Source: Gemmatimonadota bacterium (GTDB taxonomy: Bacteria; Gemmatimonadota; Gemmatimonadetes; Gemmatimonadales; GWC2-71-9). Taken from it: 64,000 bases of DNA. A program made the position numbers and the translations under genes. The notes under the pieces are model-generated. The model had not been told where the DNA came from, did no database searches, and saw only the letters and a program-made list of their open reading frames with translations. Location of the stretch: the NCBI GenBank assembly GCA_022563595.1, contig JADFNB010000008.1:258-64257 (forward strand), read 5' to 3'. This document shows positions 22,059 to 32,700 of this stretch, one piece after another. Each line of letters opens with the position of its first letter. The first letter of the stretch is position 1.

Positions 22059-22575
22059 ATGTCATCGCTCGACCCGATTCTCCGCCCCAAGTCGATCACC
22101 GTCATCGAGCTACAGAAAGCCGGTGTGCCGGCATATATATTCCCACGAGTCGGCTGCCAGCGCCCTCGGTGTGATGTGGCGGTACCGGCAAAGCACCGGG
22201 CGGCGGGAGCAGATGGCGCCGAACGGGAGGGAAGCGATCGTCGGGCTGAACCGCACCGAGCGCGTCGGCGCACTGGTCATGTTCGGTCTCGGCGGCGTGT
22301 ACGTGGAAGTGCTGCGTGACGTCGTGTTGCGGCTGAGCCCTCTGCGCGACACCGACGCTGAATCCATGATCCGGGAGGTACGGATGTATCGGCTCTTGGA
22401 GGGCGTGCGTGGCGAGCCGAAACGCGATCACGCCGCCCTGGTGGACGTCATCCTGCGCGTCTCTCAACTCGCCGAGCGCCATCCACGCATCGTCGAGGTG
22501 GACATCAACCCGCTGCTCGCACTCGAGCGCGGTGCAGTGGCGGTCGACGCCCGCTTCCAGTTGGTAGGGGCATGA
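22059..22575 (+). pseudogene. ADP-forming acyl-CoA synthetase remnant (internal deletions plus frameshift)
   Basis: N-terminus MSSLDPILRPKSITVI | middle ELQKAGVPAYIFP (+1 shift) ESAASAL | ATP-grasp C-terminus EQM..GRE.IVG..MFGLGGVYVEVLRD..EVDINPL..AVDAR. Confidence 0.82.
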
Positions 22576-23956: not shown

Positions 23957-25315
23957 TCAGGTGTTGCCGCGGCGCCACGCCTCGATCGACTCGTGCTGCG
24001 AGGCACGCAGCCGGTCGGATACCGCGACCGGATACGGCGGATCGGCTGGCTCGAGACGCCGCATCGCCGCCGGCAGCGTAGCGATCTGCTCGCGGGCATA
24101 CGTCCTGGCGGTCGCGAGATCTACGTCTCCGGCCGCGAGGCGGGTCCCTCGTTCCATGACCTTCACGAGCAGCGGCCGACCGGGGTGCTCTTCGTTGGCG
24201 AGGCCGATGATATCGCGCGCCGCCATGCCGTTCTCGTCAATTCGGAACACCTGCTTGCGATGCGGAAGCACCGGCTTGCCGCGCGAGAGCTTGACGCGTC
24301 CTTTCCCCGCGTAGGCCGTAAGCTTGTAGGCAATGTCGAGCGACGGCGCATCGCTCGATACACCCATCCGGGTTCCCACACCGAAGCCTGCAATGGGCGC
24401 GTCCCGGGACACGAACTCTTCAATCTGGTATTCGTCCAGCCCGCCGCTCGCGAAGATGGCGACGTCACGCAAACCAGCAGCATCGAGGATCTCCCGGGCC
24501 TCGCGCGCCAGCGACGGCAGGTCGCCGGAGTCGAGGCGCACCCCTCGCAGCACGCACGCGCCGGCCAGTTCCCGTCCCAGCCGGGCCACGTTCCGCACAC
24601 CGGCCAGCGTGTCGTACGTATCGACCAGGAGAATCGTCTCCGGGTACAGCGCCGTGAACCGGCGGAAGGCCTCCAGCTCGTCGTCGTGGGCCTGTATATA
24701 GCTGTGCGCCATCGTGCCGGTCACCGGAATGCCATACAGTTTCCCGGCGAGCACGTTGCTGGTCGCCTGCACCCCGGCCAGGTACAACGCGCGCGCCGCC
24801 TTGATCCCGGCATCGGCGCCGTGAATGCGACGCAGCCCGAAATCAACGACGGCACGCCCGGCCGCCGCCTCGACAACGCGGGCGGCCTTCGACGCAACCA
24901 GCGTCTGAAAGTGAACCTGATTCATCAGGAACGTCTCGACGAGCTGCGCTTCCGGCAGCGGCGCCACCACCTCCAGTAGCGGCTCCTCGGCGAACAGGGG
25001 CGTCCCCTCCGGGACGGCGTAGACATCCCCCGTGAACCGCAGCCCCCCCAGCCAACCCAGGAACTCGTCGGAGAAGGTGCCCGACGACGCGAGATATTCG
25101 AGCGCCTCCGACGTGAACCGCAGGTTCTCCAGGTAGTGCAGCACGTCGTCCAGGCCGCAGGCCACCAGGTAGTTGCGACACTCCGGCAACCGCCGCACGT
25201 ACAGGCTGAACACGGCCTCCGCGTGCATCTCCTCGCGCCAGTAAGCCTGCAACATCGTCAGCTCGTACCAGTCGGTTAGGAGCGCGACGTTGTCGTCGGT
25301 CACCCATCGGGCCAC
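23957..25315 (-). CDS. pncB: Nicotinate phosphoribosyltransferase
   Basis: LLTD.YELTM, DFGLRR.HG, GTMAHS, LVDTYDT, VRLDSGD, FGVGT; AAGGAGG before GTG 25315. Confidence 0.95.
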   Translation of the reverse strand: MARWVTDDNVALLTDWYELTMLQAYWREEMHAEAVFSLYVRRLPECRNYLVACGLDDVLHYLENLRFTSEALEYLASSGTFSDEFLGWLGGLRFTGDVYAVPEGTPLFAEEPLLEVVAPLPEAQLVETFLMNQVHFQTLVASKAARVVEAAAGRAVVDFGLRRIHGADAGIKAARALYLAGVQATSNVLAGKLYGIPVTGTMAHSYIQAHDDELEAFRRFTALYPETILLVDTYDTLAGVRNVARLGRELAGACVLRGVRLDSGDLPSLAREAREILDAAGLRDVAIFASGGLDEYQIEEFVSRDAPIAGFGVGTRMGVSSDAPSLDIAYKLTAYAGKGRVKLSRGKPVLPHRKQVFRIDENGMAARDIIGLANEEHPGRPLLVKVMERGTRLAAGDVDLATARTYAREQIATLPAAMRRLEPADPPYPVAVSDRLRASQHESIEAWRRGNT

Positions 25316-25554
25316 CAGATCATCCTCCTTGCCGGCTTCTCCCGCATAGGAAACACCCCAAACGCCCCGGCCGCAACGGACCGACCTCCCTGCCCGGCCA
25401 AAGAGATACTGCACCGTACCTCGCCCGGGAGCCAGCACAGCCGCCCGATGCCGGTCTCGCGGTCCCCTTCACAACGGCATCCCAGTTCGTTACCTACAGG
25501 TGGAACGCCGATTGCGCCTTTTTGGGGACAGCGCGTCGCGTGCATTGGCCATCC

Positions 25555-27024
25555 ATGACTTCGGCTCCGACCAAATCATCCACAGAGCGCCGCACACGTT
25601 CCGGCGCCGGCCAGCCGTCCTGGCCGTTCGTCATCGTGGCGAACCGTCTGCCGGTAAGCCTGACGCGGCGCAAGGGAGAGAAACACTGGACGACGAGTCC
25701 GGGCGGGCTCGTATCGGCGCTGACCCCGATCGCGCAGCGCGCGCATGGTGCCTGGGTGGGATGGTCGGGCAGTGTCGACGATCGGCTCGAGCCCTTCGAG
25801 CACGACGCGATTGCACAGGTACCCGTCACCATAAGTCGTCAAGATCATCACGACTTCTATCAGGGGTTCTGTAACCGCACACTCTGGCCGCTCTACCACG
25901 ACGCCGTCCAGAACCCGGAATACCACCGCCACTGGTGGCGGTCCTATGTCGCGGTGAACGAACGGTTCGCGCGAATGGTGGCCGAAACCGTGCAGGCCGA
26001 CGGTGCGGTCTGGGTGCAGGACTACCAACTTCAATTGGTACCTGCGTTGCTTCGCGCGCTCCGCCCCGACCTCCGGATCGGGTTCTTTCTCCATATCCCC
26101 TTCCCGCCTGCCGAACTGTTCGCGCGGCTGCCGTGGCGTCGCCAGGTTCTCGAGGGTCTGCTCGGCGCCGACGTGATCGGCTTTCAGACCGAGCGCAACA
26201 GGGGAAACTTCCTGCGCGTCGTCGGACAGTATACGCGGGCGCAGGCATCCGATGCCGGCCCAATAAGGCACGACGGTCGGCGGCTGCAGGCCGCGGCCTA
26301 TCCCATCTCGATCGACTTCGAGCTGTACGAGTCCGTCGCGTTGGCGCCGGATACCGAGCCCCGGGTCGAGCGACTTCGGCAACGGCTCGGCAGCAGCCGA
26401 AAAGTCATTCTCGGCATCGATCGGCTCGACTACACCAAGGGGATCGATCACCGGCTGCGCGCCTTCCACGAGCTGCTCCTGTCGGGTCTGGTGAAACCCT
26501 CCGACGCCGTCATGGTCCAGGTAGCGGTACCGAGTCGCGAGCGGGTAGCCGAGTACGCGGAGTTGCGGCGGCGCGTGGAGGAACTGGTGGGTCAGATCAA
26601 CGGCGAGTTCGGGGAGGTGGGCGTGGCGGTCGTGCATTACGTGCGCCGCAACCTGACGCCCGAGAACCTCGTCGCGATGTACCGGACGGGCGACGTCATG
26701 ATGGTGACGCCGTTGTGCGACGGGATGAACCTGGTAGCCAAGGAATATGTGGCCACGCGGTTCGACAATAGCGGAACGCTGGTATTGAGCGAGTTCGCCG
26801 GTGCCGCCGAGGAACTCACCGACGCACTGCTCGTCAACCCGCACGACGTGGACGGGATCGGCGCGGCCATCCTCAGTGCACTCACCATGGATCCGGTGGA
26901 AGCTGCCGGGCGGATGGCCAAGATGCGCGCGATCGTGCGCGGGCACACCGTGCACGACTGGGCCCGCAGCTTCGTCGCCGACCTGGTTCCGGCGCGGCAA
27001 CGCCGCAGCATTCTGGGCGGCTAG
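25555..27024 (+). CDS. otsA: Trehalose-6-phosphate synthase (GT20)
   Basis: NRLP, GGLVSAL, WPLYH, GFFLHIPFP, DRLDYTKG, DGMNLVAKEY, LSEFAGA. Confidence 0.96.
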   Translation: MTSAPTKSSTERRTRSGAGQPSWPFVIVANRLPVSLTRRKGEKHWTTSPGGLVSALTPIAQRAHGAWVGWSGSVDDRLEPFEHDAIAQVPVTISRQDHHDFYQGFCNRTLWPLYHDAVQNPEYHRHWWRSYVAVNERFARMVAETVQADGAVWVQDYQLQLVPALLRALRPDLRIGFFLHIPFPPAELFARLPWRRQVLEGLLGADVIGFQTERNRGNFLRVVGQYTRAQASDAGPIRHDGRRLQAAAYPISIDFELYESVALAPDTEPRVERLRQRLGSSRKVILGIDRLDYTKGIDHRLRAFHELLLSGLVKPSDAVMVQVAVPSRERVAEYAELRRRVEELVGQINGEFGEVGVAVVHYVRRNLTPENLVAMYRTGDVMMVTPLCDGMNLVAKEYVATRFDNSGTLVLSEFAGAAEELTDALLVNPHDVDGIGAAILSALTMDPVEAAGRMAKMRAIVRGHTVHDWARSFVADLVPARQRRSILGG

Positions 27025-27034
27025 CGCCGGCGAC

Positions 27035-28237
27035 TCATCTCCTGATCTCGTCCAGGACCTCGACCAGCCCGCGGAGAAACGTCAGCACTTCTTGGGTGTG
27101 GCGCAGGGCATAGGTTGCGGCGGTGACTTGCGGTTGCTCGGCCACAAGAATGCCGATCCCCTCATCGGTGAGAGCCCGAAAAGCGTCTTCATCGGTGACG
27201 TCGTCCCCGACATAGATCGGCACCACACCTTCCGCCTCGAGGGCGAGCGCCCGGAGCAGCCACCTCACCGCATGCCCTTTGTCCCAGTCGATCCGGGGGC
27301 GCAGCTCCAAGATCTTCTTCCCGCCGCTCTTCACGAGATCGGTGTGCGCAGCGGTCGCCTCGTCGACGGCGCGCTCGATCTCAGGCACGCGCTCCTCAGC
27401 CGCATTGCGGTAGTGGACGGCGAGCGCAAACCGCTTGCGCTCCACGCGCACGCCCGGCACCGGGGCCAGCACAGCCGCCAGCGTCGTGTGCGCGGCCTCG
27501 AGGCTCGGGAGACTCGCCCGCCCTCCATCGTATTCCATCCGCAGGCCGTCCGGTCCCGCAATATCGAACCCGTGGCTTCCGGCGTAGACCAGCTCGTCCA
27601 GCGCCACCAGCCGCTTCAGGTCCCCCAGGTCACGGCCGCTGACGATGGCTACGAAGCAGCGTGCGGCCAGCTTGCGCAGAACCCCGCGCATCTCGTCGGC
27701 GAGCACCGCGTCCTCCGGTTGCGATACGATCGGCGTCAGCGTGCCGTCGTAGTCGAGGAACAGCGCCAGGCGTGCGACGGAGAGCCGCGGCGCGAGCGCC
27801 TCAGGCAGGTCCAGCGCCGAAGGCAGTGTGCCCCGGCCACCGTACCTATTGGCAAGCACCGAGAACTCAGTAGAGCCAAGCAGTCGCTCGTCGGCGGTCA
27901 CCAGGGTCAGGTCGTAGACCTTCGCGGTCGCGGCAAGCAACCGGTCGGCGGGATCGCGATGCGGCAGGCCGACGGCCTGGCTCTCGAGCGCCACCTCGTG
28001 CGTGATCGGCGCCTCGCGGAACGGCACTGTCCGCAGCACCTCACGAACCCAGCGCTCCGGATCACCGCTCACCAATACGCGGCCCACGTCAATCAGGACC
28101 AGCAATTCCCACGTGCTGATTGGCGAGAGCCACAATTCATTGTCCGGAGATTCCAGCTCGGCTGCAACCTGCGGTGTGAGGTTCTTCGGTTCGAGCAGAC
28201 TCCAGAGCCAGATGTGGGTATCGAGCAGCAGCCTCAC
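27035..28237 (-). CDS. VapC/PIN toxin fused in frame to trehalose-6-phosphate phosphatase (OtsB)
   Basis: N-terminal LLDTH..S.WE..HRDPADR..LVTAD..VLANR reads through TAC into LPSALD..LFLDYDGTL..SGR..GSHG..WDKG..GDDVTDEDAF; 400 codons; GTG overlaps the antitoxin TGA. Confidence 0.85.
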   Translation of the reverse strand: MRLLLDTHIWLWSLLEPKNLTPQVAAELESPDNELWLSPISTWELLVLIDVGRVLVSGDPERWVREVLRTVPFREAPITHEVALESQAVGLPHRDPADRLLAATAKVYDLTLVTADERLLGSTEFSVLANRYGGRGTLPSALDLPEALAPRLSVARLALFLDYDGTLTPIVSQPEDAVLADEMRGVLRKLAARCFVAIVSGRDLGDLKRLVALDELVYAGSHGFDIAGPDGLRMEYDGGRASLPSLEAAHTTLAAVLAPVPGVRVERKRFALAVHYRNAAEERVPEIERAVDEATAAHTDLVKSGGKKILELRPRIDWDKGHAVRWLLRALALEAEGVVPIYVGDDVTDEDAFRALTDEGIGILVAEQPQVTAATYALRHTQEVLTFLRGLVEVLDEIRR

Positions 28238-28485
28238 GACCGAAGCGCTTCCCAGTCCTCCTCGCCCAGCGGCGCCACCACGTCGCCCACGATGCGGCCG
28301 CGCCTGGCGAAAGCGCCGAGCCAGCTCTTGGGACGCTGCGGAGGCGGGGGAGGCACGACCTCGGCAACGGGCTCGCCGAAGCGCGTGACCAACACCGGCC
28401 GTCCGGTGCGCCGCACGCGCTCCAAGACGGCGAGACAAGTGGCCTTAAACTTAGAAATGGCAATGGATTCGCGGTCATCTAACAT
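28234..28485 (-). CDS. Phd/YefM family antitoxin
   Basis: IAISKFKATCLAVLERV..TG..VLVTR.G.PVAEVVP motif; acidic C-terminus. Confidence 0.9.
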   Translation of the reverse strand: MLDDRESIAISKFKATCLAVLERVRRTGRPVLVTRFGEPVAEVVPPPPPQRPKSWLGAFARRGRIVGDVVAPLGEEDWEALRS

Positions 28486-28491
28486 GCCAAA

Positions 28492-28527
28492 AATCTACTA
28501 TGGTCAATGATTATAGTCAATTAGTAG
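28492..28527 (-). promoter_or_regulatory. Sigma70 promoter with overlapping TA operator repeats; probably leaderless transcript
   Basis: TTGACT (28520-28515)-N17-TAGATT (28497-28492), 6 nt before ATG; repeats TTGACTATA/TTGACCATA; near-palindrome TGACTATAATCA. Confidence 0.75.
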
Positions 28528-28626
28528 CCGATCGCGGAGACACGCTTCCGCAACACAAACCCTTGGAAGGCCGGCATGTCTGGGCGGAAGTGCACCCTGG
28601 ACATGGGACAAGCAAAAGAGGAAGCG

Positions 28627-29182
28627 CGCCTCGGCCTCTCCGACGATGACCTCACCGCGCTACGCGGTGCCGGCGCAGTGCACGACATCGGCAAGGTAGC
28701 CGTGCCTGACGCCACTTGCTGAGGCGCGGGCGGCTGACCCCGGACGAGTGGGTCATCATGCGGCAGCATCCGGTGACCGCGAGCGTATCTGTCAGGGTCT
28801 CAAGTCATTCCGGCTCGTGACTCCGATCATCCGCCATCACCACAAACGACTCGACGGATCCAGCTATCCCGATGGACTCGTCGGAGACGCTATCCCACTG
28901 ACCGCTCGGGTGCTGCAAGTCGTCGATGTCTACGATGCCCTGATCACCGAGCGGCCGTATAAGCCGGCGTTCTCGACCGCCCAGGCCCTCGAGACGTTGC
29001 GTGCGGAATGCGCCAAAGGCTGGCGAGACCCTGACGTCGTCGCCCGGTTTGAGCAGCTGGTGCTGGAAGGCCAGCTGGCGTGGGAAATCGCCAGTGACGC
29101 GGTGCGGCTGACGGTATACGGGTCATGTCGACGTTGCCTCGATTCGCTCCAGGCGGGGCGTCCGCCGCCGGGCGAGCAGTGA
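28627..29182 (+). pseudogene. HD-GYP phosphodiesterase pseudogene
   Basis: HDIGKVAVPD | GRLTPDEW.IMRQHP | IIRHHHKRLDGSSYPDGL..IPLTARVLQVVDVYDAL..ERPYK split across frames; no N-terminus; HHE and GYP motifs degenerate. Confidence 0.85.
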
Positions 29183-29441
29183 CCGGTAGGCTCTCCCTAA
29201 CCGGGATGTAGGATTCCTGCTTACAGGCTGGCGTCCCTCAACGGACATCCTGACAGCCCAAGTCCTACTGTTTCCGGCGCCTGCCGCCGATAGAAAAAGA
29301 GTGTTCGGATCCGATATTGTGCCCTGAGTTAGAGGCTGCTCTCCGCGGCAGTCACACACACTGTGGGAGTCGGAAGCATGACGCAGGCGGTACCGCACGC
29401 GCGGAACGGCTTGAGAGTTATTGTCGGAGTTACAGTTGTAG

Positions 29442-29513
29442 AGCCACCGCGCGGATTCGAACCGCGGACCACTCGATTACGAATCGAGAGCTCTACCACT
29501 GAGCTACGGTGGC
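29442..29513 (-). tRNA. tRNA-Thr(CGT)
   Basis: GCCACCG acceptor stem; AGCTCAGTGGTAGAGC D-arm; CTCGA-TT-CGT-AA-TCGAG anticodon arm; GGTTCGAATCC; CCA not encoded. Confidence 0.96.
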
Positions 29514-29516
29514 GCA

Positions 29517-29598
29517 TGCCCTGGCCCGGATTCGAACCGGGACGGCTCTCGCCACTGCCCCCTCAAGACAGCGTGTCTACCGATTCCACCACCAGGGC
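29517..29598 (-). tRNA. tRNA-Leu(GAG)
   Basis: GCCCTGG acceptor stem; CTGTC-TT-GAG-GG-GGCAG anticodon arm; long variable arm; GGTTCGAATCC. Confidence 0.96.
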
Positions 29599-29799
29599 AG
29601 GCAGAGGGTAACCCTCCGAGACCGCCCAACCTAGCCGGCATCCATAACAGAATCAAGCGGCGTAGGCTGGCGACACGGAGGGTTGAACCTAGTGTTTCCT
29701 CCTCGATGACGAAGCAGCGAATCCGCTCGCTTTCCACACTGGTGTACGTGTTCGGCAATGTCATACAGTGTGTTAGCCGGCCCCTGCCCCCGCCCCATA

Positions 29800-32700
29800 T
29801 CAACCGCCGTCGTTCTCGTCCCGGCGCAGGACGATAGCCGGGAGGTCGAGCGCGCCTACGCGTTGGTTGAACTCGGGCACCCGGTTATCCATCACGTCGG
29901 CCAACCTATCGAGCTGGATCTGGAGCTGGCCGGACAGTTCCTCGAAGACAGCGTACGCCTGTTCGGTAGGCGCGAAATCGCCGTTCTGCACGACGCCCGT
30001 CAGCGCCGCGAGCTTGTTGTTCAACCGGATCGGGAAGTTGAGCGGGTCCTGGTTGCTACGATTCTTGGTCTGGTAGATCTCCCGCTCGATCTCGCCCAGT
30101 GCCTCCTTGATGGTCTTGGCCAGTGCCTCGACCGAATCCGCCTCGGTGGCATCGACGGCGTCGCCCGCGGCATCGATCCGGTCCACCACGCCGTCGATCT
30201 GCTCGCGGACCTGTCGGATTCGTGTTACTGCGTCGTTGGCCTCGGTCACCCGGTCACGAATCCGGATCAGCAACTCGAATTGCTCGCGGAGATCGGCCGC
30301 GGTGGCGTTCACCCGCGGGTCGGCACGGATCTCGAACTGTTGGGTCTGCGACCATGCGCCGACGGTAAGCCGGGCCTGGTAGCTTCCCGCCACCGCGCGC
30401 GGCCCGCGTGTCGTGCCCCCCCACATGATCATCCCGTCGAATCGGCTGGCGTCCGCATACCGCAGGTCCCAGACGAACCTGTTCATCCCCGCCTCGAGCT
30501 CGAGCTGCCGGTTCCGTTCCTCGGATTTGGTCGAGTATGTCTTGATCACGTCCCCGTCCGCCTCGAGGAACTCGAGCGTGATCTCGGCGTCCTCATCTGC
30601 CTCCCGCAGATGGAAGAACGTCATGACACCGCCCGGCGGGTTCTGGCCCACACCGCTCACGGCGAAGCGGAATCCGCCACCGCCCATCCGATAGGTTGGG
30701 CGCGGTACAAAGAGGTGCGCTTCCGCCGACGCTATTTCCTCCGACAGCGCCCGCAGCGGCGTGATATCGTCGAGGATCCAGAACGAGCGCCCGTGTGTCG
30801 CCACGATCACGTCACTGTCCTTCAGGATCAGGCCGTGGATCGGCACGATCGGCAGGTTGAGCTGGAGCGACTGCCAGTGCTCGCCCGCGTCGAACGACAC
30901 GTAGACGCCGAACTCCCCGGCTGCGTATAACAGCCCGGGCCTGCCGAGGTCCTCGCGGACGGAGCGGATGAAGTGGTTGTCCGGAATCCCGCGCACGATC
31001 TTCCGCCAGGAACGCCCGTAATCGGTCGTCATGTAGATATAGGGAGCGAAGTCGTCCTGCTTGTAGCGCGTGGCCGCGACATACGCCGTGCCGGGATTGT
31101 GCGGTGAAACGTCGATGATGCTGATCAACGCCCACTCCGGCAGGCTGCGCGGTGTCACGTCGGTCCAACTCTCGCCACCGTCGCGCGTCACGTGGATCAG
31201 GCCGTCGTCCGAGCCCGCCCAGATTACTTCTGAGTCGTTGGGCGACGGTGCCAGCGTGAACACCGTCCCATAGTACTCGACACTCGTGTTGTCCTTCGTG
31301 ATCGGTCCGCCCGACGGGCCCATCTTGGTGGTGTCATTGCGCGTGAGGTCAGGGCTGATGCGCTCCCAGCTCTGCCCCTCGTCGGTGGAACGATGGACGT
31401 GCTGCGACGTCACGTAGAGCACATTCGGATCGTGCGGTGGGATGATGATCGGGAACGTCCACTGGAACCGCTCCCGCAGCCGGGCGGCACCCCAGCCCAT
31501 CGGGTTGTCCGGCCAGACGGAGATCGAGCGCTCTTGTCCCGTGGCACGATCGTGCCGCTCGAGCTGTCCCCCATAACAGCCGGCGAAGAAGATGTCCGTG
31601 TCGTCGGGCCGCTGTGCCACGTACCCGCTCTCGCATCCGCCGACGCCGAAATCGTAGGTCCGCGTCTGAATGCCGAAACCACTGGTGCGGCTCGGTACGC
31701 AAATGGTGCTGTTGTCCTGTTGGCCGCCGCACACCTTGTACGGGAAATCGGCGGTCGCGAACGCGTGATACATCTGGGCCGTCGGCTGGTTGTCCTGCCG
31801 GGTCCAGGTCGCGCCGCCGTTGAACGAGACGTTGGCACCGCCGTCGTTACCGTTGATCATGCGCGCCGGGTCGTTGGGCGCTATCCACAGGGCGTGGTTG
31901 TCACCGTGGGGAACGCGGATCGAGTTGTAAGTCTTGCCGCCGTCCACGGACCGATAGAATGCGGTGTTCAGCACGTAGACGGTCTCGACGTCCTCGGGAT
32001 CGGCGAAGATGTGCGTGTAGTACCACGCGCGCTGCCGCAGCCGGCGCTCGCTGTTCACCCGGGTCCAGGTCTCCCCACCGTCGTCCGACCGGAAGACACC
32101 GCCTTCATCGGCCTCGACGATGGCCCACACGCGGTCGGGGTTCGCCGGCGAGACGGTCACGCCGATCTTCCCGATCGTGCCCTCCGGTAGCCCGTCGTTG
32201 CGCGTGATCTCGGTCCAGGTGTCGCCGCCGTCGGTGGACTTGAAGAGTCCGCTCCCCGGCCCACCGCTCTCCAGCGCCCACGGATAACGCCGCACCTGCC
32301 AGAGGGCGGCGTAGAGGATGCGCGGATTGGTGGGATCCATCGCCAGATCGATCGCCCCGGCGTTCTCATCACGGTAGAGCACCCGCTCCCAGGTCCGGCC
32401 GCCGTCCTGCGAGCGGAAGACACCCCGCTGCTCGTTGGGACCGAAGATGTGGCCCAGCACCGCCACATACACCAGATCGTGGTCATTGGGATGGACCACG
32501 ATGTGGCCCACCTGACCGGCATCTGCGAGCCCGATCGGCGTCCACGTCTTGCCGGCGTCGGTCGAGCGGTAGACGCCGTTGCCCGGCGAGACGTTGCCGC
32601 GCGGCGGCGACTCACCCGTCCCGACGTAGACGACGTTCGGGTCCGATGGTGCCACCGCGATCGCACCGATGGAGCCGGCCATGCGGGTGGAGTCGGTGGT

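Follow-up and report, generated by a model that had tools for sequence, protein, structure and literature searches.

How does the toxin gene of a type II toxin-antitoxin (TA) module come to carry the trehalose-6-phosphate (T6P) phosphatase of its host, and is the arrangement of any use to the cell? The question is raised by a locus of a Gemmatimonadota bacterium, located in a stretch of 64,000 nucleotides (contig JADFNB010000008.1 of assembly GCA_022563595.1, positions 258 to 64,257), which we call the window. On the reverse strand of the window, a phd-vapC module runs straight into otsB, and a single open reading frame (ORF) encodes a VapC toxin followed by the phosphatase OtsB. A preliminary description, made from the letters alone, had suggested that trehalose synthesis comes under TA autoregulation or that RNase activity is tied to T6P, and had offered a chance fusion as the alternative. 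Our analysis favors the alternative. The fusion is real and belongs to one lineage; it was probably created by rearrangement and kept by the need for the enzyme, with no bifunctional system having evolved around it. It has the look of an accident that the cell tolerates rather than of an evolved switch.

The fusion ORF (27035..28237, reverse strand) consists of 400 codons and a stop, and the reading frame, when checked, contains no internal stop. It starts with the GTG of a GTGA in which the stop codon of phd and the start codon of the fusion overlap, a layout of translational coupling. The phd gene (28234..28485, reverse strand) encodes a Phd/YefM-type antitoxin of 83 amino acids that scores above the cut-off of TIGR01552 phd_fam (27.8 against 20.8 bits) and slightly below that of PF02604 (29.4 against 29.8 bits). 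Codons 1-131 of the fusion ORF (27845..28237, reverse strand) encode a complete VapC/PIN domain, codons 132-137 (27827..27844) a linker of six residues, YGGRGT, and codons 138-400 with the stop (27035..27826) an OtsB domain that lacks the first ~14 codons of its stand-alone relatives. The end of otsA, which encodes the GT20 T6P synthase (25522..27024, forward strand; GT20 E 1.2e-140, TIGR02400 527 bits, under its cut-off of 565), faces the end of the fusion ORF across a gap of 10 nucleotides. The antitoxin, the GTGA coupling, the uninterrupted ORF and the convergent otsA had all been reported in the preliminary description, and they hold. The linker, given there as ANRYGGRGT, is indeed short and includes YGGRGT, but its first three residues, ANR, are the native C-terminus of VapC, as the 28 relatives compared all indicate.

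Both halves of the protein keep the features of their families. PF01850 matches residues 4-119 with 50.9 bits against a cut-off of 23.6, and the acidic residues of the PIN domain (D6, E44, D95/D98 and D116), earlier said to be intact, are all present and invariant across 38 relatives. Conservation of at least 90% among 28 VapC relatives marks 43 columns, of which the PIN part keeps 42; the sole change is F100L, and the relatives themselves deviate at a median of one column. Modeled alone, the PIN part reaches a pLDDT of 93.6 and resembles VapC toxins most closely in fold (top 3tnd_A, TM 0.74), at a sequence identity to solved VapCs of only 12-26%. A gene like phd lies upstream with a 4-nucleotide overlap in 25 of the 28 VapC relatives. 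The module is Phd-VapC in every respect tested, except that VapC is by definition a small single-domain protein of ~130 amino acids and the fusion has 400. By these measures the PIN half looks intact.

For the OtsB half, PF02358 matches residues 160-379 (188.3 bits against a cut-off of 27, E 1.5e-55) and the T6P phosphatase equivalog model TIGR00685 scores 194.4 bits against 68.05. The full set of HAD motifs claimed in the preliminary description is there: DYDGT at 162-166, SGR at 200-202, K307 and GDDxTDED at 344-351, each in columns invariant across 11 stand-alone relatives. The threshold of 90% conservation, applied to 92 stand-alone OtsB relatives, gives 109 columns; 104 of them are kept in the fusion, and none of the five changes falls in a HAD motif. 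The best match among solved T6P phosphatases is Mycobacterium tuberculosis OtsB2 (5gvx). In an AlphaFold2 model of the whole fusion (mean pLDDT 89), two confident domains are joined by a disordered linker, with pLDDT below 50 at residues 133-136 in the linker and at 170-172 inside the OtsB domain. The OtsB half therefore looks intact as well and is predicted to be an active enzyme. It would also be the only one of its kind: the source genome, 96% complete, has a single PF02358 match, which makes the fusion the sole T6P phosphatase gene of the cell, and the T6P synthase gene otsA lies beside it.

The sequence around the junction records how vapC lost its end. Tyr132 is encoded by TAC (27842..27844, reverse strand), and at precisely this position all 28 VapC relatives stop, 14 of them with TGA, nine with TAG and five with TAA. 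The stop follows residue 131, or residue 129 in six of the 28, and is preceded by ANR, or by ANE, ANK, ANQ and similar tails, in all 28. Of the 120 best stand-alone VapC matches, 106 are exactly 131 amino acids long. TAC is one base from TAG or TAA, and the suggestion that a TAG or TAA had changed to TAC gains from the 14 relatives that end with one of these two codons. On the other side of the junction, the start of otsB is missing: the conserved LPSAL is preceded by ~14 residues in 11 stand-alone relatives and by six in the fusion.

The relatives of otsB also suggest what stood at the locus before. At the seven closest OtsB loci (56-63% identity) a HAD gene lies upstream and a GH65 gene downstream in every case, and the same layout is found at 15 of the top 20 loci with enough flanking sequence and at 58 of 103 overall. 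These closest loci are tight operons of a beta-PGM-like HAD gene, otsB and GH65, with metagenome-assembled genomes of Gemmatimonadota and Myxococcota among them. At three of these loci (L018, L019 and L021) a rhomboid gene precedes the tightly packed operon (about 3195-7209 in L019) and otsA is convergent, lying just behind GH65 in L019 and L021. The fusion locus has neither pgmB nor GH65, the two partners that define the pgmB-otsB-GH65 (OtsB1-like) module; phd-vapC lies upstream and otsA downstream. GH65 has no match anywhere in the source genome, while pgmB was looked for at the locus and not genome-wide. The absence of both genes from the locus, together with the failure to find the fusion in any other lineage searched, favors the chance origin that had been raised as an alternative, by insertion of a TA module or by deletion.

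Pairs of phd and vapC related to this one at 55-66% identity are spread over three phyla (Gemmatimonadota, Acidobacteriota and Planctomycetota), a distribution that suggests a mobile cassette. Divergent from the TA promoter lies the remnant of an HD-GYP gene (28576..29182, forward strand), 5'-truncated and frameshifted: the HDIGK segment is in one frame, which stops at about 28719, and the rest (28748-29182) is in another and aligns only with positions 88-170 of the HD_5 profile, which has 170. The remnant appears to be a pseudogene, cut in the same event that brought the TA cassette. In base composition the cassette (GC 0.64-0.68) does not stand out from the otsB part (0.70). Nor could the ancestral state be read from two genomes of the same genus, in which only otsA matches (60% and 36-39%) and the flanking genes do not; a distant otsB-like gene (34-36%) is present in one of them alone (G001).

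From these observations, the following history can be proposed. The ancestral locus would have been pgmB(HAD)-otsB-GH65, convergent on otsA as in the closest relatives. A mobile phd-vapC cassette would have replaced pgmB and the promoter-proximal end of otsB with its start codon, its arrival clipping the HD-GYP gene; GH65 would have been deleted; and the vapC stop would have become TAC, for which a single substitution in a TAG or TAA is the simplest route. An attractive path has two steps: the insertion silences otsB, T6P made by OtsA becomes a burden, and the change from stop to Tyr restores the phosphatase.

Public sequencing runs show that the junction exists in the DNA of independent samples. 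Nineteen runs contain at least half of the sampled words of the stretch, and the 20 runs with a match come from nine studies, each of them on marine or sediment metagenomes. For the comparison, four runs (X3, X16, X19 and X20) were taken from four different studies, avoiding the two best-matching runs as possible sources of the assembly itself. In all four, a contig bridges the Tyr132 codon (27156-28611 in X3, 27728-28580 in X16, 27734-28186 in X19 and 27594-28018 in X20). The contigs of X19 and X20 are identical to the window letter for letter, and within the ORF no insertion or deletion and no change at the Tyr132 codon is listed for any of the four runs. A stop or an error at the TAC, the check proposed in the preliminary description, is thus listed in none of the bridging contigs. 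In addition, the protein cluster of the fusion at 90% identity comprises 12 sequences from 3 contigs. The junction is genuine and no assembly slip. In X16, the most diverged population compared, the differences displayed in the ORF comprise seven synonymous and one non-synonymous change (L310F), with one of the synonymous changes in the linker and none shown in the PIN part; the pattern fits purifying selection on OtsB.

The same runs vary around the fusion. In X3, 17 of the 18 listed contig differences fall within 28453-28577, in the first phd codons and the promoter/operator, with a 1-nucleotide deletion at 28489, and the fusion ORF of that contig is nearly unchanged. Short contigs of X3, X16 and X19 match only 28587-28625 (39 nucleotides); ahead of 28587 all of them have a foreign flank in common. 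This segment may be shared with another sequence in those samples. Run X20, whose contig spans the junction, is labeled metatranscriptomic WGA; the RNA label is a guess, and the run was not used as a sign of expression.

The preliminary description had proposed to look for the PIN and Trehalose_PPase architecture in other genomes; it was found only in the fusion's own cluster. Of 7,276 relatives with a length of 220-700 amino acids, the best 120 show PF01850 and PF02358 together in that cluster only, and the next best match is an OtsB of 277 amino acids with 66% identity. No match spans both halves in 40 related genomes, one of them unpublished (G016). In the best 80 of 566 loci from the genomes of 185,579 species, and likewise in the best 80 of 574 from metagenomes, matches cover residues ~137-400 or ~1-131 and never both. 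Matches that seemed longer were HAD-OtsB proteins (L124, L139, L101, L034 and L055) or alignments through stop codons (L171, L159, L087 and L094). In a HMMER search of 1.84 billion representatives, the best 150 matches never reach the PIN part, and 40 long matches scanned with Pfam contain no PIN domain. Searched alone among proteins of 220-700 amino acids, the PIN part gives eight matches, with OtsB in the self cluster only. The PIN-OtsB fusion is a one-off of a single lineage.

The stand-alone relatives of the toxin form a very large subfamily, with 7,973 of 8,000 scored candidates at E <= 0.001. The closest is 76% identical to the PIN part, which means that no near-identical unfused allele is on record. 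The source genome (G000, 3.25 Mb) has 13 PIN-domain matches, three of them within ~1.5 kb on contig C86, and is therefore rich in VapC-type modules. The other long PIN relatives were set aside as mis-called starts, frameshift fusions or, in the case of P0273, read-through. P0273 belongs to the same VapC subfamily; the stop that should follow its ANR is gone, and the protein continues for ~100 residues without a recognized domain. It is an independent stop-loss read-through; stop loss does occur by accident.

How would a phosphatase without its own start be made and kept? Upstream of phd lies a putative sigma-70-like promoter (28492..28520, reverse strand) with the elements TTGACT and TAGATT spaced by 17 nucleotides, found once against 0.1 sites expected from shuffles. 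It ends 6 nucleotides ahead of the phd ATG, and the phd mRNA may therefore be leaderless. Two tandem 13-nucleotide repeats (28499..28524; 77% identity between the copies) overlap the promoter and are a candidate operator for Phd/VapC. Since otsB lacks its own promoter and ribosome-binding site, as well as a clear start codon, its expression would have to come from the TA promoter. On one transcript, phd would be translated first, and ribosomes would couple through the GTGA into vapC and continue through the six linker codons into otsB, so that the sole T6P phosphatase would be produced as the C-terminal domain of the toxin. Phd presumably still neutralizes the PIN domain, and the complex would repress the promoter as in other VapBC systems. 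The dosage of OtsB would then be set by TA autoregulation and would rise upon degradation of the antitoxin. In this respect the earlier idea that trehalose synthesis comes under TA autoregulation stands in part: expression from the TA promoter follows from the anatomy, but no evolved switch is supported.

Such a protein could well be tolerated. HAD-OtsB fusions of about 520 amino acids are common among the relatives, and these, together with the ~145-residue N-terminal part of OtsB2, indicate that the OtsB family accepts N-terminal additions. In M. tuberculosis, blockade of OtsB2 leads to toxic accumulation of T6P, and deletion of otsA removes the essentiality of the phosphatase (Korte et al. 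2016, PMC5148154). With otsA active, loss of the T6P phosphatase should likewise be harmful here. As a side effect, frameshift and nonsense mutations in vapC would be selected against.

This side effect can be taken further. The TA cassette might hold the sole T6P phosphatase hostage, a selfish module made impossible to lose by capturing a gene and giving the metabolic output of that gene a coupling to stress. If so, deletion, frameshift or nonsense mutation of vapC would also destroy OtsB and lead to T6P poisoning while otsA is active. Selection on OtsB would protect the toxin ORF and, through the toxin, the antitoxin, and trehalose output would be wired to TA derepression under stress. We regard this idea as unlikely.

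Alternatively, two products may be made. Translation could begin a second time inside the ORF, at codon 127, a GTG in frame (V127, 27857..27859, reverse strand), or at the CTG of codon 138, giving a free OtsB of ~274 amino acids as the working enzyme and leaving the 400-residue fusion as a tolerated by-product. The preliminary description had stated that OtsB has no ATG or GTG of its own. This is right for codons 128-177, which contain no ATG, GTG or TTG, the next canonical start being codon 178; it overlooked GTG127, the one canonical start that lies in frame ahead of HAD motif I and the only one that yields an intact free OtsB. At 274 amino acids, that product fits the length of stand-alone relatives (274-277). 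The Shine-Dalgarno-like pairing upstream of GTG127, inside the VapC tail, is just -2.2 kcal/mol, however, a value equaled or beaten at 80% of the positions in the ORF, and this codon encodes a Val that is common in the VapC tails of relatives, which indicates inheritance from vapC and no sign of a start. CTG138 is preceded by a better Shine-Dalgarno-like stretch (-7.9 kcal/mol), but CTG starts are rare. A weak Shine-Dalgarno sequence does not disqualify either codon, as several genes in the window show no match at their approximate starts. On the whole, we consider a separately made enzyme quite unlikely.

A further possibility is that the tether itself was selected, by making trehalose upon TA derepression, by letting T6P or trehalose modulate the RNase, or by making the TA module permanent. 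It could draw on the expression of otsB from the TA promoter only, on the intactness of both halves and on the presence of the fusion in all four populations compared, which makes it older than their divergence. There is also a loose precedent for a link between T6P and VapBC, in that two vapB antitoxin genes of M. tuberculosis responded to T6P stress with strong induction (PMC5148154). However, only one cluster at 90% identity carries the fusion in any search, and with the closest stand-alone VapC at 76% and OtsB at 66%, the architecture has neither spread nor diversified. The six-residue linker bears no sign of adaptation, and the other long PIN relatives, such as P0273, look like artefacts of gene calling or read-through. 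A selected coupling thus seems very unlikely, and the more specific proposal that the RNase is tied to T6P has no support from a second lineage, from co-variation or from an adapted linker. That the locus is an assembly or consensus error, or an unexpressed pseudogene on its way out, is highly improbable: the scarred surroundings (HD-GYP pseudogene, pgmB and GH65 missing from the locus, no GH65 genome-wide) and the fact that none of the listed runs is on record as RNA count in its favor, but the same junction stands in independent contigs from four studies and in the 12 sequences of the cluster, the 400 codons run without stop or frameshift, the conserved columns and catalytic motifs are kept, seven of the eight X16 differences shown are synonymous, and the gene is the only PF02358 gene of the genome with an intact otsA adjoining.

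A fusion by rearrangement, kept by the needed enzyme, remains the reading that we favor, and several points weigh against it. The five deviating conserved columns of the OtsB part exceed the median of one in stand-alone OtsB relatives, whose maximum is 12. Intact halves are no proof of function, as the fusion may be too young for decay, and GTG127 could leave room for a separately made OtsB. The bridging contigs of X3 and X16 each carry one difference at a position that the table does not give, and contigs drop rare variants, so that a minority unfused allele is compatible with the data. The tally of single-nucleotide variants behind the argument for selection is small, up to five X16 differences not being displayed, and the PIN part, with 0-1 differences, provides no measurable selection on the toxin half. 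The lack of runs on record as RNA, already mentioned, counts here too. Finally, the order of insertion, GH65 loss and stop loss is not recoverable; the genomes of the same genus share no synteny here.

Compared with known systems, the module shares with canonical Phd/VapB-VapC pairs such as Shigella flexneri VapBC (3tnd) the 4-nucleotide overlap of antitoxin and PIN toxin genes, a 131-residue PIN domain with four acidic residues, the promoter repeats and the fold (3tnd_A). It differs in that the toxin ORF continues into a sugar-phosphate phosphatase extension of 269 residues. Mycobacterial PhoH2/PhoAT is closer in general plan, as a two-domain 'long' type II toxin with an N-terminal PIN domain and a small co-transcribed antitoxin upstream (PMC4826407, PMC5499597). 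In PhoH2, whose architecture is conserved in bacteria and phages alike, the added domain is a PhoH RNA helicase that works on RNA and complements the RNase. In contrast, the domain added here is a metabolic HAD sugar phosphatase with no RNA link, in one lineage only, and the fusion does not belong to the PhoH2 type, in which a PIN domain and an RNA-acting domain form an architecture conserved across lineages.

On the phosphatase side, the nearest relatives of the OtsB domain (up to 66% identity) are those of the pgmB-otsB-GH65 and HAD-OtsB(-GH65) systems, in which N-terminal OtsB fusions are common. There the N-terminal partner is a beta-phosphoglucomutase-like HAD protein, whereas here it is a PIN toxin, and OtsB pairs only with OtsA. 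M. tuberculosis OtsB2 (5gvx), the closest solved structure (E 5.8e-57 by sequence; Foldseek E 1.9e-28, 33% identity), likewise has ~145 residues ahead of the catalytic core, but these are no PIN toxin, and OtsB2 lies outside any TA operon. PIN fusions to GNAT, PUA and PhoH domains are cataloged in a survey of the PIN superfamily (PMC5499597), the main text of which does not mention trehalose. Papers combining a PIN domain with T6P phosphatase, or VapC with OtsB, were judged by title, the latter all concerning M. tuberculosis, and none was found to describe such a fusion. The fusion is best read as a new variant among the 'long' toxins, a VapC joined to an enzyme of an osmoprotectant pathway, undescribed in the literature searched.

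Elsewhere in the window, tRNA-Thr(CGU) and tRNA-Leu(GAG) genes (29441..29599, reverse strand) adjoin the rearranged stretch and are the only Rfam matches within 25000-30000. A 150-amino-acid ORF at 22123-22575 (forward strand) aligns with no more than positions 103-221 of the 221 in the ATP-grasp_5 profile, the C-terminal half, and has no long in-frame ORF upstream; it may be a truncated gene or have a mis-set start.

Given its single lineage and no sign of an evolved link, the weight of the fusion is that of an instructive accident and not of a new system. Its host is a bacterium that recurs in marine sediments. If the fusion is a working phosphatase, a mobile TA cassette would have rewired the expression of a host gene, and purifying selection on the host enzyme would shield the toxin gene from loss. 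Both ideas bear on the persistence of chromosomal TA modules.

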